A stretch of 64,000 nt of DNA from Vulcanimicrobiota bacterium (lineage in GTDB: Bacteria; Vulcanimicrobiota; Xenobia; Xenobiales; JADMJV01). Below are positions 40,742 to 46,405 of this stretch, in pieces. The first letter of the stretch is position 1. Every line of letters begins with the position of its first letter. The stretch lies in NCBI GenBank assembly GCA_050250895.1, contig JBFWNU010000003.1, positions 746,109-810,108 on the forward strand, read 5' to 3'. A model generated the notes under the pieces. It saw only the letters and a program-made list of their open reading frames with translations. It was not told the DNA's origin and did not search any database. Both the position numbers and the translations under genes were made by a program.

Positions 40742-41923
40742 ATGCATAACGGTAAAACCCCCGTGATCGTCAGCGCCGTGCGCACCCCGGTGGGCCGCGG
40801 CCGTAAGGGTAGCCTGGCGGCCACCCGCCCCGACGACCTGGCCGCCCTGGTCATGAACGCTGCCCTGGCCAAGGCCAGGGTGGCTCCCGAGATGGTCGAG
40901 GATGTGGTCTTCGGCTGCGCCATGCCCGAAGGCGAGCAGGGCCTCAACGTGGCCCGGCTGGCCGCCCTGCTGGCCGGCTTGCCGGTGGAAGTGCCGGCGG
41001 TGACCGTCAACCGCTTCTGCTCATCCGGTTTGCAGGCGGTGGCCATGGCGGCCCAATCGATCGCCACCGGCATGACCGACTGCGCCATCGCCGGCGGAGT
41101 CGAGTCGATGAGCATGGTGCCGATGACAGGCTATCACCCTTCCATGAATCTGCGCTTGTTCGAGCTGAACCCGGGAGCCTATCTTGGCATGGGCCTGACG
41201 GCCGAGAACCTGGCCAGCAAATACAGCATCTCGCGTCAGGAGCAAGACGAGTTCGCCCTGGCCAGCCACCAGCGCGCCGCTGCCGCTATCGAGGCCGGCA
41301 AGTTCAAAGACGAGATCGTGCCGGTGGAAGTGCGCTTTGACCAGCGCAAAGGGGCCAAGGTCGAGTCGAAGATGATCACCTTCGACACCGACGAACTGGT
41401 GCGCTCGGATACTTCGATGGAGGCGCTGGGCTCGCTCAAGCCTTCGTTCAAGCTGAAAGGCTCGGTCACTCCCGGCAACTCGTCGCCGATCTCCGACGGA
41501 GCGGCGGCTTTGGTGCTGATGAGCGCCGACAAGGCAAAAGCCGAGGGCCTCGAGCCCCTGGCCGAGTTCGTGTCGTTTGCGGTAGCCGGTGTGCCCCCCG
41601 AGATCATGGGCATCGGGCCGGTGGCGGCCATTCCCAAAGCCCTGGCCAAGGCCGGCCTCAAGCTCGACGACATCAAGGTGATCGAGCTTAACGAAGCCTT
41701 TGCCGCTCAGAGCCTGGCCGTGCTCAAGGAGATGAACATCCCCCTCGACCGGGTCAATGAGAACGGCGGCGCCATCGCCCTGGGCCATCCCCTGGGCTGC
41801 ACCGGGGCCAAGCTCTCGGCCACCACCATCCACGAGCTACGCCGCCGCGGCGGCGGCTACGGCATGGTGACGATGTGCATCGGCGGCGGCCAGGGCGCAG
41901 CCGGCATTTTCAAGGTGAACTAG
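40742..41923 (+). CDS. fadA: Acetyl-CoA C-acyltransferase (thiolase)
   Basis: [35 protein letters not shown]. Confidence 0.95.
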
Positions 41924-42060
41924 CCGTCTTCCGCGAGCTTGGCTGGCCAGCGCGCTCGGCGGGCTTGGCTGGCCGACGCGCTTGGCGGGCTTGGCGGGTA
42001 CGGCACCAGGTGGCGCCGAATTCGGCACGTGGTGGTGCCGTACGGCGGTGGGGCTGGCCT

Positions 42061-42164
42061 GGTCAAGGCATTTCCAAGGCCCCTCGGTTAGGATTAGCTC
42101 AGTGAGATGAGCAAACGGTTGGAACTCGGAGGCCCCGGAAACGGGGCCTCTTCCTTTTATTCCC
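42061..42164 (+). ncRNA. Candidate promoter + short RNA + terminator cassette, copy 1
   Basis: CAAGG-N6-CAAGG, TAGGAT, then gaggccccg-GAAA-cggggcctc and a pyrimidine/U run. Confidence 0.5.
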
Positions 42165-42442
42165 GCGCGGTCGCTGGCCTCGTCTGGCTCGGCGGGCCTG
42201 TCGGGCGCGCCTGGCGGGCAGGGGTAGGGCCGTACGGCGGAGGCTCTCCTGGGCCGTCTTCCGTGCGGAAGTGCCTCGCCGCGGCCTGGGTGTGGCGGGG
42301 CTGGCTGGTTGCTCTTCCGTGTGGAAGTGGCCTCGGCCGAACTGCCCTGGCTGGCCGGCGCGCTTGGCGGGGCTGGCGGGTACGGCACCAGGTGGCGCCG
42401 AATTCGGCACTTGGTGGTGCCGTACGGCGGTGGGGCTGGCCT

Positions 42443-42546
42443 GGTCAAGGCATTTCCAAGGCCCCTCGGTTAGGATTAGCTCAGTGAGATGAGCAAACGG
42501 TTGGAACTCGGAGGCCCCGGAAACGGGGCCTCCTCCTTTTATTCCC
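42443..42546 (+). ncRNA. Candidate short-RNA cassette, copy 2
   Basis: Near-identical to copy 1. Confidence 0.5.
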
Positions 42547-42915
42547 GCGCGGGTCGCTGGCCTCGTCTGGCTCGGCGGGCCTGTCGGGCGCGCCTGGCGG
42601 GGCGGCGGGTAGGGCCGTATGGCGGAGGCTCTCCTGGGCCGTCTTCCGTGCGGAAGTGCCTCGCCGCGGCCTGGGTGTGGCGGGGCTGGCGGGTACGGCA
42701 CCAGGTGGCGCCGAATTCGGCACTTGGTGGTGCCATACGGCGGAGAGGCTGGCTGGTTGCTCTTCCGTGCGGAAGTGGCCTCGGCTGAACTGCCCTGGCT
42801 GGCCGGCGCGCTTGGCGGGCTGGCGGGTACGGCACCAGGTGGCGCCGAATTCGGCACGTGGTGGTGCCGTACGGCGGGGAGGCTGGCCTGGCCCGACTTC
42901 CGGGCGGAAGTGCCT

Positions 42916-43018
42916 GGTCAAGGCATTTCCAAGGCCCCTCGGTTAGGATTAGCTCAGTGAGATGAGCAAACGGTTGGAACTCGGAGGCCCCGGAAACGGG
43001 GCCTCTTCCTTTATTCCC
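42916..43018 (+). ncRNA. Candidate short-RNA cassette, copy 3
   Basis: Near-identical to copy 1. Confidence 0.5.
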
Positions 43019-43110
43019 GCGCGATCGCTGGCCTCGTCTGGCTCGGCGGTCCAACCGGGCCAGCCCAGCCCGCGAGCGGGTTCGGCCGGTCGAAGGACGA
43101 AAGGTGAACC

Positions 43111-44067
43111 ATGCGATGGCAATGGTTGATATTGCTCGTGTTGCTCGGTTGTTCGCCCAGGACCACCCCGGTCGAGACGCCCAAGATCGACGAAGCCTTC
43201 CGTCCGCCGGATGAGGCGGCTCGCCAGGCGGCCATCGGCGAGGTGCCAAGCGAGCAAAAGGCCTGGTTCTCCACGGCCCACTACGAGCCGATCCAGGAGC
43301 CTCACTCCATGGACTGGCTGGCCAATCAACACGAAGCCGGGCAGACTTTTGACGAGTTCGTAGCCTCTCAGCCCAATCGCCCGGAGGGGTCCCGGTCGGT
43401 GGTCTACTTCCAGCCTATCGGGGAGTTCGGCGAGGATGCGCCTTCGCGACAGAAGCTGAGCCAGTTCACCTCGGCCTTCTTCGGGCTCAAAGTCGAGTGG
43501 CTCGACCCGCTGCCGACCGAGGGCCTGGGCGTGACCGAGCGTCTCAACGAACTCGAGGGGGAGCGGCAGTTGTTGACCGGGGACCTGCTAAAAGCACTCA
43601 AGAAGCGACTACCCGATGACGCCTACTGCGAGCTGGGCGTGACCATGGCCGACCTTTATCCGCGCGAAGGTTGGAACTACGTGTTTGGGGCGGCCTCGCT
43701 CAAGGACCGGGTCGGTGTCTATAGCTTCGCTCGTTACGACCCGGCTTTCTACGGCAATGATCGCAAGGATGGCTGGCGCGAACTGGTGCTATTGCGAAGC
43801 TGCAAGGTGCTGGCCCACGAGACGGGACACATGTTCGGTCTGGCCCACTGCATCCACTTTGACTGTTTGATGAACGGCTCGAACCACCTGGCCGAGACCG
43901 ATTCCCATCCGCTCTTTCTTTGCCCTGTCTGCCTGCGCAAGCTGCATTCCAGCGTGGGGTTTGACCCGGTGGCGCGCTATCGGGCACTCGAGTCGTTTTG
44001 TCGCGAGAATGGTCTGAGCGGCGAGGCCCAATGGTTGCAGCGACGCCTGGCTGAGCTCGCCGAGTGA
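43111..44067 (+). CDS. Archaemetzincin-like zinc metalloprotease (peptidase M54) lipoprotein
   Basis: Lipobox LLGC; HETGHMFGLAHC...CLMN...CPVC; WNYVFG. Confidence 0.9.
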   Translation: MRWQWLILLVLLGCSPRTTPVETPKIDEAFRPPDEAARQAAIGEVPSEQKAWFSTAHYEPIQEPHSMDWLANQHEAGQTFDEFVASQPNRPEGSRSVVYFQPIGEFGEDAPSRQKLSQFTSAFFGLKVEWLDPLPTEGLGVTERLNELEGERQLLTGDLLKALKKRLPDDAYCELGVTMADLYPREGWNYVFGAASLKDRVGVYSFARYDPAFYGNDRKDGWRELVLLRSCKVLAHETGHMFGLAHCIHFDCLMNGSNHLAETDSHPLFLCPVCLRKLHSSVGFDPVARYRALESFCRENGLSGEAQWLQRRLAELAE

Positions 44068-44106
44068 CCCAACAGGACAAGGCTTTACCGACCCGAACGG
44101 GGTCAG

Positions 44107-45033
44107 ATGAAGAGACTGTTCTGGTTACTGGTGTTTTGCCTGGTCGGATGCAATCGCACTGTCGTGACCCCAGAGATCCCGCCGCCGTTGGGCGAACTCA
44201 AGTATCAGCTGCAAGGCTACTCGGCTGACGGCCAGCAGGCCTTTGCCACTGACTTGCCGGGCGAGGCACGGGCGCTGCTTGGGCCTGACGAGCAAGGCAA
44301 CATCTACGTGACCATAGACGCCAAGCTGCTAGCCTTTGATGGCAACGGTAACCCGGTGGGCAAGGCCCAGGAGCCGCCGGGCACCCCGCGGGCGTTAGCG
44401 GGCCAGACGATTTTCTGCCAGAGCGAGAGCGGTGTTAGCGCCTATGACCGCGAGGCCAAGAAGGAACTCTGGAGTCGGCAACTCGAGAGCCCCCTCTGGC
44501 TGACTCCCTCGTCCGACGGCTTACTGGTCGGGACGTCCACCGAGTGTCATCTGTTGGATGCCGAGGGCAAGGAGATCTGGAAGGATCAGTTCGAGTATCA
44601 GCCGGTGGGGGCGTCAGCCGCGGGCGGGAGGGTGTTCGTGACGGTCTCCAAGCCGGCGCTCTACGCCTATGACCTGAAGACCGGTAAGAAACTGTGGGAA
44701 AAGAGCTGGGACGGTGGCGAGAACAACTGGGTCGGCAGCGTGTCGACCCCAGAGGCGGTTTTTCAGTCGCTTAGTTCGGGTTTGACGGCGCTCAAAGCCG
44801 AGACCGGCGAGGAACTCTGGTCGTCACCGGCCGAGACCCGGATGATAGCCTACCAGGACGGCAAGGTCTTTGGTCAGGCTCATCTCCACAAGGGGGTGGT
44901 GGTGGATGCCCTGACCGGCGAAACCGTGGCGGAGTTCGCGATGCCAATGTTTGTAACCATCCCCCTGGTTGCCGCCGATGGCAAGTTCTTCGTCACCGGG
45001 AATGTGGTTCCCAAGCTGCCTCAGGAACAGTAG
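44107..45033 (+). CDS. PQQ-like/BamB-type beta-propeller lipoprotein
   Basis: Lipobox LVGC; repeated A(Y/L)D..TG..LW motifs. Confidence 0.82.
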   Translation: MKRLFWLLVFCLVGCNRTVVTPEIPPPLGELKYQLQGYSADGQQAFATDLPGEARALLGPDEQGNIYVTIDAKLLAFDGNGNPVGKAQEPPGTPRALAGQTIFCQSESGVSAYDREAKKELWSRQLESPLWLTPSSDGLLVGTSTECHLLDAEGKEIWKDQFEYQPVGASAAGGRVFVTVSKPALYAYDLKTGKKLWEKSWDGGENNWVGSVSTPEAVFQSLSSGLTALKAETGEELWSSPAETRMIAYQDGKVFGQAHLHKGVVVDALTGETVAEFAMPMFVTIPLVAADGKFFVTGNVVPKLPQEQ

Positions 45034-45094
45034 CTAAACTGTCCGTCGCCGTAAACGTGTGCGGCAGCGTCGGTGTCGACTTGCGGCGGAAGTG

Positions 45095-45197
45095 GGTCAA
45101 GGAATCTCCAAGGCATGTCGGTTAGGATTAGCTCAGTGAGATGAGCAAAACGGTTGGAACTCGGAGGCCCCGGCAACGGGGCCTCCTCTCTTATTCC
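45095..45197 (+). ncRNA. Candidate short-RNA cassette, diverged copy 4
   Basis: Same CAAGG boxes and TAGGAT; one-base insertion (gagcaaaacgg); hairpin loop GAAA changed to GCAA. Confidence 0.5.
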
Positions 45198-46405
45198 TGG
45201 AGCGGCCCCATGGGGCTGATCAGCTCACGCAGCGACTCGATGGGCACGGGAACCTGCGTCGGTTGACCATCGTGGAAGAGATCCACTAGCACTAGCTTCT
45301 TGGGAGTGAGGTAGAACTGGGGCTCCTGGTCGAGAAAGTCGTCCGCCATTTTGAACTGGTATTCTCGGTCGGCGATGGGCCCGGCGATCTCTCTGAGCTT
45401 GGGCAGAGTGTCGCCGATGTTGGCTTTGAAGAGATCGCGATAGTTGTCTTGCCGACCGGTGTGAAGGCTGATGTTGCGGGTGGTAAAGGTGCGATTGTGC
45501 GAGCCGGCGCCGCGCAGCTTGCCTGAACTCTTGTAGAGCACGCTGATATAGTCGGCGTCGAGGCGGGTCACTTCGAAGCTGCGAAATTCGTAGTAGTCGT
45601 CTTCCCATTGATAGGGCTTGGGTGGAAAGGCCTCCTCGAGTTCCTTATTGATCCTGGCCTGGAGCTCGGTGTCGACCATGCCGCGCAGTTGGGGATAGTA
45701 GCAGGTGCTATAGAATCTGCCCACGTGCACCTTGCGCCCTTTGGTGACCAGGCGGGGCACACCGGTGAGGTCGGTGAGCAGATGGGTGAGAGCCGCGTTC
45801 TTGACCTCGGCAAGGCCGCCGTCGTCAGACTTCAAGTGGCGGGCGATTTCGACCGCTTCGGGCCGGTGGACGTTGCAGACCAGCTGAATTAGAAAGATGG
45901 AACGCAGCTCGGCATCGCGGCCCGGTTCCTTGCGGTGGCCGAATTCTGCCTCAGACAGCCGTTGCAGACGAGCCCGGGTGTCGTCTCCGAGTTCGGCCAG
46001 GGCGCCTTCGAGGGCATAGCCGACGTCACGATGGGTTTCGACCCGCAGTCGCTGCCGCAGGGGGGCGACGGCGGCCGGCGAGTGGGTGCCACCGAGTAAT
46101 ACCGCGCTCACGTAACGCTCCCAGGGCTCGGGGCTCGAGAGCTGTTTGACCAGCACAGCCACCTGGCCGGGACCGACGCGCGCCCAGTCGCGGCGGGCCT
46201 GACGATAGCGACGCAGGGTGCTGGCGCTGGTGTAGTTGCCCAACTCGTCAAACTGCTGCCAGTAGTGGCGAGCCGGTTCGACAGTCTCCGTGGGCAGTTT
46301 GGCCAGCACGGCCTTGAGGCCGTCATCGCTGCCCCAGCCCTTCTTGAACTGGTCGGCCTGGGCAGCCAGGCTAGCGATGAGCAGGATGGCGAGTAGGCGG
46401 CGCAT
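45191..46405 (-). CDS. Secreted protein with HEAT-like repeats and C-terminal DUF3298/RsiV-like domain
   Basis: Signal peptide; WERYVSAVLLG...AVAPL; YPQL...INKEL...NISLHTG...DLF...FYLT. Confidence 0.72.
   Translation of the reverse strand: MRRLLAILLIASLAAQADQFKKGWGSDDGLKAVLAKLPTETVEPARHYWQQFDELGNYTSASTLRRYRQARRDWARVGPGQVAVLVKQLSSPEPWERYVSAVLLGGTHSPAAVAPLRQRLRVETHRDVGYALEGALAELGDDTRARLQRLSEAEFGHRKEPGRDAELRSIFLIQLVCNVHRPEAVEIARHLKSDDGGLAEVKNAALTHLLTDLTGVPRLVTKGRKVHVGRFYSTCYYPQLRGMVDTELQARINKELEEAFPPKPYQWEDDYYEFRSFEVTRLDADYISVLYKSSGKLRGAGSHNRTFTTRNISLHTGRQDNYRDLFKANIGDTLPKLREIAGPIADREYQFKMADDFLDQEPQFYLTPKKLVLVDLFHDGQPTQVPVPIESLRELISPMGPLQE

Follow-up and report, generated by a model that had tools for sequence, protein, structure and literature searches.

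Four copies of a short cassette lie between positions 42061 and 45197 of a 64,000-nt stretch of the genome of a Vulcanimicrobiota bacterium (contig JBFWNU010000003.1, positions 746,109 to 810,108), hereafter the window, and we analyzed these cassettes as candidate genes for a small RNA (sRNA). Positions in the window follow its own numbering, and the sRNA starts and 3' ends given are predicted. Loci elsewhere in the window's own genome (G000, hereafter the host genome; 9.5 Mb, 17 contigs) are given by contig (C1, C2 and so on).

Cassettes in the window

A preliminary description of this sequence had placed cassette copies at 42061, 42443, 42916 and 45095, and a repeat search of the window recovered exactly this set as one 103-nt family with four members, 96-100% identical among copies 1-3 and 73% for copy 4. 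The 27-nt core running from TAGGAT to GAGCAAA had four exact matches in the window and none in 100 shuffles, and the alignment of the four cassettes had a mean column identity of 85%.

Each cassette reads, in order, TCAAGG, N5, CCAAGG, N9, TAGGAT, N7, GTGAGATGAGCAAA(A)CGGTTGGAACTCG, a GC stem-loop and a pyrimidine-rich tail (Table 1). The preliminary description had seen two CAAGG boxes 11 bp apart with different intervening bases in copy 4; both points hold, the exact boxes being TCAAGG and CCAAGG and the bases between them CATTTC in copies 1-3 and AATCTC in copy 4. It had also called TAGGAT a -10 element without a consensus -35, and a promoter scan found no sigma-70 -35/-10 pair in 41800-45400. 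The GC stem with a changing loop was likewise recovered, the stem measuring 9-10 bp and the loop being GAAA in copies 1-3 and GCAA in copy 4, and a terminator scan rated the hairpins of all four cassettes as terminator-like.

Table 1. Cassette parts and neighbouring features in the window.
Feature	Position	Strand	Details
Copy 1 boxes	TCAAGG 42063-42068, CCAAGG 42074-42079	+	11-bp period; about -38 and -27
Copy 1 -10 TAGGAT	42089..42094	+	9 nt past box 2
Copy 1 predicted sRNA, about 60 nt	42101..42160	+	predicted start at A, 7 nt past the -10
Copy 1 sRNA parts	hairpin 42128-42151	+	5' core AGUGAGAUGAGCA; hairpin followed by pyrimidine/U tail
Copy 2 promoter	42445..42476	+	boxes 42445-42450 and 42456-42461; -10 42471-42476
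Copy 2 predicted sRNA	42483..42543	+	hairpin 42510-42533
Copy 3 promoter	42918..42949	+	boxes 42918-42923 and 42929-42934; -10 42944-42949
Copy 3 predicted sRNA	42956..43015	+	hairpin 42983-43006; M54 peptidase gene begins about 95 nt on
Copy 4 promoter	45097..45128	+	boxes 45097-45102 and 45108-45113; -10 45123-45128
Copy 4 predicted sRNA	45135..45196	+	hairpin 45163-45186, loop GCAA; extra A in linker
M54 (archaemetzincin-like) peptidase gene	43111-44067		between cassettes 3 and 4
Convergent gene	45191-46405	-	stop adjoins copy 4 sRNA
REP-like GC-rich palindromes	41930..42915	.	before and between copies 1-3

The first three units stand in tandem at spacings of 382 and 473 bp, with the fourth 2.2 kb away. 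Upstream of the array lie a fadB-like gene and a thiolase gene, ending at 41923, and cassette 3 is followed by the M54 peptidase gene, a PQQ_2/BamB-like gene and cassette 4. The palindromes resembling repetitive extragenic palindromic (REP) elements are outside the sRNA unit, yet are part of the tandem 382/473-bp duplication. Two REP-like families were distinguished. The first is a 46-nt palindrome whose core GGCGCCGAATTCGGC occurs 17 times in the genome and whose half-site, with at most 3 mismatches, occurs 60 times; the second consists of CTTCCG-N2-4-CGGAAG hairpins, of which the genome holds 191. Both often form tandem arrays elsewhere (periods of 120-200 bp), and one such array lies directly behind the sRNA copy at C1:1054249.

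Copies in the host genome

Searching the host genome with a regular expression and an nhmmer profile yielded 23 full-length copies and 3 partial ones, and the full-length set was found again with the covariance model described below. The set of four in the preliminary description is real but not the whole, amounting to 4 of the 23 full-length copies. We sorted the copies by their boxes into class A (17 copies; TTAACG and (G/T)TGACG), class B (five copies of the CAAGG type, TCAAGG/CCAAGG) and a single AT-rich oddity (C1:1438395), which has TTAACA/GTAACA boxes shifted out of the common register. Class B comprises the four window copies and a fifth at C4:344878, recovered by BLAST of copy 4 against the host genome, which also returned weak partial hits that the regular expression and the profile then resolved; its boxes and 5' core are those of the window cassettes and its hairpin is wholly different (GGGGGCCC-GAUA-GGGCCCCC, then a T9 run). 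The CAAGG boxes, earlier described as conserved, are kept in this fifth copy, but they are the minority form, found in 5 of 23 copies and in none of five relatives searched.

The geometry is identical in the two classes, with box 1 at -38 to -33, box 2 at -27 to -22, N9, TAnnnT and N7, followed downstream by GTGAGATGAGCA, a 1-4 nt A/T-rich linker, GGTTGGA(C/A)C, the hairpin and a T-run. In 22 of the 23 copies, and likewise in relatives, the boxes are 11 bp apart and 9 bp before TAnnnT, and the terminator lies 27-45 nt past the start. The -10 is constant only at T-A-n-n-n-T, its inner bases and the 7-nt spacer being variable.

Conservation in relatives and metagenomes

We built a covariance model (R1) from 25 of 34 copy sequences and searched it against 101 genomes, namely the host genome and 100 relatives. 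Full-length matches were confined to two of the three genera of the window's own family: both genomes of genus g1 (the host genome and a second one, G001) had them, and in genus g3 clear matches were obtained in 6 of 8 genomes, with a further genome (G011) yielding only a match to a promoterless subfamily (E 0.0036). Genus g2 gave terminator-like partial matches only, plus one full-length match (L129) that was unrelated on inspection. No full-length match was found in the 85 genomes of other families, and the matches in 5 of them cover the hairpin part only. BLAST of copy 4 against 60 relatives returned no match because the query was a copy of the minority class B. Against Rfam 15, the 64 kb window had 0 matches at the gathering score, and at E<=10 the cassettes gave terminator-level sX12 matches only (21.5 and 17.9 bits, against a cut-off of 106 bits).

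Scanning 185,579 species genomes with a sequence pattern produced 23 loci. Eleven of these are in the same-genus metagenome-assembled genome G001, all with class A boxes, a TAnTCT -10 and an identical 5' stretch, and with a hairpin that differs again (ACCCCCGGG-UAAC-CCCCGGGGGU); the other 12 were singletons without the architecture, about the chance level for this pattern. Copies in genus g3 have class A-type boxes in either order, TAnnnT, a seven-base gap and then GTGAGATGAG, which mostly follows an A (two copies in genome G005 have T or C there). Their downstream part is divergent, reading UAGUUGGACC, UAGCUGGUAC, AUUGGAUGGCC or passing at once into the terminator, and their hairpins differ too. 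In a metagenome scan with promoter and downstream block fixed and the first 14 transcribed or spacer bases left free, 31 matches were obtained, 30 of them with the full architecture, and 29 of those 30 had AGTGAGAT.

Taking the 77 distinct promoter-bearing copies together, AGTGAGATGAG is exact in 71, and an A stands directly before GTGAGATGAG in 72. The first 11-13 nt of the predicted 5' tail, corresponding to the core listed in Table 1, are almost invariant. We also noted a diverged subfamily in genus g3 (L062, L126, L119, L130 and L110) that reads GAGTGAA(A)TAAGCATAGTGG... followed by a terminator, without class A boxes and usually after CTTCAT; these members may be processed from a longer transcript or may have another promoter. 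A literature search returned no publication about this RNA or the promoters of its lineage.

RNA structure and coding potential

In the terminator helix, 91.5% of cells are paired, and both partners have changed in 6 of the 8 pairs (53 cells). This covariation was matched by 0 of 500 shuffles, and controls in which the helix was slid were only 34-68% paired. In the centroid fold of class A, the first 25 nt from the 5' end stay single-stranded. A covarying terminator together with an unpaired, conserved 5' end is characteristic of a small RNA that is transcribed and whose 5' end is functional, and the hairpin is needed only as a hairpin.

A small protein gene starting ATG-AGC-... would encode MSKRLEL in the window copies and MSIGWT in class A; its ATG overlaps the TGA (ATGA) and class A copies hold a 6-codon frame. 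Against it, the preliminary description had argued that the extra A in copy 4 breaks the long MSKRLEL frame, and the ATG frame is indeed shifted there. More generally, the linker from GAGCA to GGTTGGA differs by 1-4 nt among copies, so no frame is conserved past Met-Ser, the frame and peptide differ between copies beyond the second residue, and in many copies the frame passes through the terminator without a stop. We rejected the small-protein interpretation on these indels and consider it extremely unlikely. The earlier proposal that the cassette is a self-contained unit, running from promoter to terminator and specifying a short non-coding RNA, is supported, and we regard it as highly likely that the cassettes are sRNA genes.

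An alternative raised by the preliminary description is that function resides in a leaderless minigene, the 5'-proximal GUG-AGA-UGA (start, rare Arg codon, stop). As we see this alternative, the minigene, once transcribed massively under regulation, would act as a translational brake by occupying 70S ribosomes, initiator tRNA, the only tRNA-Arg(UCU), or the factors for release and recycling. A start-sense-stop triplet is present in all 77 promoter-bearing copies scanned (73 GTGAGATGA, 2 TTGAGATGA, 1 GTGATATGA and 1 GTGAAATGA), and the invariant 11-mer consists mostly of the nine bases of this mini open reading frame (ORF). AGA is the rarest Arg codon of the host genome (2.6 per 1000), read by one tRNA-Arg(UCU) gene, and leaderless starts are heavily used, with 439 starts exactly 6 nt past TAnnnT (crude gene calls). 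The cassette GTG, however, lies 7 nt past the -10, a distance at which only 75 gene starts were counted over a background of about 55. The geometry, described earlier as that of the leaderless genes here, is one base off the peak at 6 nt (other distances have about 30-90 starts), and the position expected of a leaderless start is filled by the A found in 72 of 77 copies.

Other observations also speak against the minigene. Conserved sequence (GAGCA or GAGTG) continues downstream of the stop. A frame satisfied by whatever sense codon and stop would leave AGA and TGA free to change, but 73 of 77 copies are identical there while the -10 interior, spacer and hairpin vary freely. Two copies outside the 77-copy scan break the frame: L123 has AAG for GTG with boxes, -10 and terminator intact, and L122 has AGA for TGA. 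Four of the five members of the promoterless g3 subfamily have no such frame. Two-codon minigenes are known from the phage lambda bar locus, and AGA-containing ones trap peptidyl-tRNA; the cassette resembles these lambda bar-type and AGA minigenes in having a start, one sense codon (the rare AGA) and a stop near the 5' end of a short RNA that would be strongly transcribed. Known examples are phage-borne or artificial constructs with a ribosome-binding site, whereas the putative frame here is leaderless and one base out of the local register. We judge the minigene unlikely. It would amount to a natural chromosomal translational brake, in which the invariant 5' end is no pairing seed and, in an organism with hundreds of leaderless mRNAs, a burst of an RNA of 20-plus copies under two signal-dependent promoters soaks up 70S ribosomes, initiator tRNA or tRNA-Arg(UCU) through its leaderless GUG-AGA-UGA, an idea to which we attach a low probability.

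A protein-titrating RNA was considered as well, in which the 5' tail would sequester an RNA-binding protein (CsrA or another) and copy number would set the titration capacity. CsrA is encoded in the host genome (75.5 bits), one GGA lies in the single-stranded GGUUGGA block of genus g1, and a protein ligand would be compatible with the high copy number, the strong nucleotide conservation and the failure to detect an mRNA target. Known CsrA sponges have numerous GGA motifs, placed in the loops of hairpins. The cassette RNA has 1-2 GGA per molecule and none in its loops (GAAA, GCAA, GAUA, UAAC). In many g3 copies the block with the GGA (block 2) is altered (GCUGGUAC or GAGUUGGCUC) or missing, whereas the 5' core, which has no GGA, is invariant. 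CsrA titration by a GGA-rich sRNA, suggested in the preliminary description, is made unlikely by motifs that are this few and are not conserved in the sister genus. With CsrB/RsmZ the cassette RNA shares being a small RNA that may titrate a regulator, and it differs in having no array of GGA-loop hairpins. Overall, titration of any protein seems to us decidedly unlikely.

Genomic context of the copies

Most of the 23 copies are dispersed (19 loci), and the copies lie at intergenic sites. Twelve copies lie directly behind a co-oriented gene and the rest are in other arrangements (crude gene calls). The 17 neighbour proteins that we compared had no mutual similarity in an all-against-all BLAST, and an association with insertion sequences or transposons was rejected on this result. 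Nine class A copies on C1, C3, C8 and C9 differ from one another by 0-4 nt over the ~97-nt unit, spacer bases included, which indicates recent spread or gene conversion; their flanks are unrelated and have no terminal repeats or target duplications. The preliminary description had proposed that dosage is amplified by the repeat array; the gene is indeed multiplied, but far beyond the array, to 23 copies.

Recent spread, the frequent proximity to REP-like arrays, the many positions directly after co-oriented genes and the copy 4 hairpin adjoining a convergent gene would also suit repeats without RNA function. Such repeats would be selfish or structural elements resembling miniature inverted-repeat transposable elements (MITEs) or REPs, or terminators or insulators for flanking genes, spread by recombination. 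The unit, however, is bounded exactly by box 1 and the T-run, and we saw neither terminal inverted repeats nor target duplications; its boxes are common to promoters of protein-coding genes. Between genera, hairpins of other sequence are found with an unchanged promoter geometry and 5' 11-mer, which indicates selection on the transcript start and not on the terminator. We therefore regard repeats devoid of RNA function as very unlikely.

A second unit of ~190 nt was observed behind three class A copies (C1:1327925-1328151, C8:237474-237705 and C8:368270-368503). It ends with a decayed sRNA 3' part and the same terminator, and it holds CCAACCAA, which is complementary to UUGGUUGG of the sRNA; it could represent a decayed duplicate, or else a longer RNA.

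Promoter architecture and box regulons

To assess the boxes at the genome scale, we counted identical 4- and 5-mers repeated 11 bp apart and lying 9-11 bp before TAnnnT, and compared them with repeats at periods 8, 10, 13 and 14. Period-11 repeats were in excess over all four control periods in the host genome. The dominant groups were TTCAG (66-96 exact pairs), CAAGG (12-15) and TGACG/TAACG (about 12-18). Judged from these counts, tandem boxes in place of a -35 are a genome-wide architecture, with the box sequence defining promoter classes. The earlier claim that the boxes are a promoter element is supported by the protein-coding genes preceded by the same boxes (below), but they are not peculiar to the cassette, as at least three box sequences are used genome-wide.

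The class B pattern matched 12 sites in the host genome, corresponding to the 5 sRNA genes and 7 protein-coding genes with the same boxes, spacing and distance to the -10. The products of the latter comprise two NDH-2-like oxidoreductases, both extended at the N-terminus, as well as a lipid desaturase-domain protein (PF10520), an alpha/beta hydrolase and small unknowns; among these genes are those at C1:816284-817408, C4:83758-84936, C3:836117-837028 and C2:194907-196151. As far as predicted gene functions go, this content hints at a membrane or redox stimulus. In G001 and four g3 genomes, the class B search gave 4 matches, none with TAnnnT, against 2 in controls; with class B not found in these five relatives, the RNA appears to have been re-wired recently to a second factor in the window copies.

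A loose class A pattern matched 31 sites in the host genome, namely the 17 class A sRNA genes and 14 others, at least 2 of the latter being doubtful. The non-sRNA genes encode a subtilase-like protein, a GntP-like permease, a PI3/4-kinase-like protein, a short histidine kinase and unknowns. A strict class A pattern gave 27, 31, 28, 17 and 4 matches in five sRNA-bearing genomes and 0 in backward controls, the sRNA genes accounting for 17 of the 27 strict matches in the host genome; five g2 genomes without the sRNA gave 0, 0, 1, 0 and 0 matches. From these counts, the class A regulon and the sRNA occur together.

A pho box is a direct repeat with an 11-bp period ending about 10 bp before the -10. 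The cassette promoters are similar in having direct repeats of period 11, a 9-bp gap to the -10 and no -35. This geometry would fit an activator of the OmpR/PhoB type at the boxes, and 29 Trans_reg_C matches, 26 of them over the cut-off, were counted in the host genome, as were roughly 19 strong OmpR-family regulators; none could be tied to the boxes. A Pho regulon was rejected for the class A boxes, since the genes downstream of them include no phosphate gene.

Proposed mode of action and target searches

On balance, we lean towards a regulator-driven family of sibling sRNAs acting through an invariant 5' end. Under this proposal, each cassette would by itself be a complete gene for a non-coding sRNA some 55-65 nt long, with transcription starting at the A located 7 nt downstream of the TAnnnT -10. 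The two boxes, one helical turn apart (centres near -36 and -25), would recruit an activator instead of a -35, most likely a winged-helix response regulator bound as a tandem dimer, and termination would occur at the GC hairpin and its U/pyrimidine tail. Class A boxes (17 copies, two genera) and class B boxes (5 copies, host genome only) would drive the same RNA, so that two signals would converge on it and it would be made from many genes at once. The unstructured 5' tail of ~25 nt would serve as the seed for trans pairing with mRNAs, in which Hfq would probably assist. The features found are those of an Hfq-type sRNA, namely a covarying terminator with a U tail, a single-stranded conserved 5' end and an encoded Hfq (85 bits). 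We give base pairing as the mode of action of the family an even chance.

Several results weigh against pairing or against a dedicated response regulator. When seed duplex energies were computed against 7,871 start regions of genes, 537 fell below -22 kcal/mol, within the range of 79-786 obtained with 5 shuffled seeds. The 13-nt complement of the seed, allowing up to 2 mismatches, occurred in 8 start regions compared with 4.0 +/- 2.7 in 30 shuffles. None of 15 class A/B regulon genes ranked in the top 14% of predicted targets, the seed contains no anti-Shine-Dalgarno motif, and of 3 orthologues only 1 retains the best single site (C4:530825). A search of sequencing runs listed no RNA run containing this sequence, and one DNA run with a word share of 0.05. 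No regulator gene was found beside the box-bearing promoters inspected. Because tandem boxes are general in this genome, with 66-96 TTCAG pairs, the boxes might be read by a sigma-like or general factor and not by response regulators.

One group of genes was examined as candidate targets. CTCATCTC is the second commonest 8-mer after start codons, found in 6 unrelated genes of which at least 3 are leaderless, and the resulting xTG-CTC-ATC-TC start is, with its start codon, complementary to nt 4-14 of the sRNA. This leaderless start also occurs in 7 genomes without the sRNA (101 genomes searched) and is missing from G001 and from 7 of the 8 g3 genomes, so that it does not co-vary with the sRNA. 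These candidate targets gave no support beyond a phylum-wide N-terminal motif that belongs to a wider M-(L/R/K)-I-x set.

As an observation in its own right, short N-termini encoded by identical codons are shared by 6 unrelated genes each: xTG-CTC-ATC-TC (MLIS), xTG-AGA-ATC-CA (MRIQ/H) and xTG-AAA-ATC-GC (MKIA). Many of these genes are leaderless and some continue with a linker and then a glycine zipper; the loci include C5:154679(-), C6:394923(+), C4:530825(+), C4:298018(-), C4:322725(+) and C3:47940(+). Leaderless ATG-CTC-ATC-TC recurs in other families of the phylum, and the shared N-termini could be a sorting signal or a leaderless-initiation context. Separately, seven paralogous leaderless genes start MKPLQE(H/Y)TREAL and have common upstream DNA (C2:344964, C2:473571, C8:364524, C2:284407, C7:432460, C4:518171 and C6:593159); they are probably copies of an insertion sequence.

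Comparison with known small RNA systems

RybB and OmrA/OmrB are Hfq-dependent sRNAs with a 5'-terminal seed, each under a dedicated stress regulator. The cassette RNA resembles them in its conserved single-stranded 5' end, variable middle and Rho-independent terminator with a U tail, and differs in being much shorter, in its far higher copy number and in having no in silico target support.

Closer parallels are offered by the cia-dependent small RNAs (csRNAs) of streptococci. CiaR promoters of the form NTTAAG-N5-TTTAAG, about 10 bp before the -10, drive 2-6 csRNAs of 51-202 nt, whose start is assumed 7 nt past the -10 and which end at an intrinsic terminator, and CiaR boxes also drive protein genes of the regulon (PMC3091779). 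Shared with the cassettes are the sibling genes and the hexamer repeat with N5 that replaces the -35, here TTAACG-N5-GTGACG or TCAAGG-N5-CCAAGG located 9 bp before the -10. The cassettes differ in number (23, not 2-6), in having two box types and in a box sequence that is not TTTAAG; furthermore, the cassette RNA has no CCUCC (anti-Shine-Dalgarno) and, as a complement to a start codon, only a CAU in class A copies, and the lineage is not streptococcal.

NsiR1 of Nostoc/Anabaena is an RNA of about 60 nt whose gene occurs as 12 tandem copies, every one under a promoter of its own (PMC9045159). Its tandem repeats, each with a specialised promoter and a terminator, partly identical and partly diverged, match the layout of the three-copy array in the window. 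Most cassette copies, in contrast, are dispersed (19 loci), the promoter motif is another one, and no antisense partner adjoins the array. The cassette RNA is a member of neither group, because it has no sequence or Rfam relationship to them and comes from a different lineage. It is a new RNA family, closest to the streptococcal csRNAs and NsiR1; what sets it apart is its copy number, the use of two promoter types and the tandem boxes.

Implications for the lineage

Gene regulation in this uncultured lineage is almost wholly unexplored. Promoter lists for Eremiobacterota are often incomplete, as stated in the ProFinder preprint. With two boxes one turn apart replacing the -35, predictors trained on model bacteria may miss promoters of this kind. 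If the sibling sRNA proposal is correct, the 23 genes would be among the largest sibling-sRNA families described in a bacterial genome, the sRNA would be the main output of a conserved tandem-box regulon, and one RNA would have been re-wired to a second, lineage-specific promoter type.

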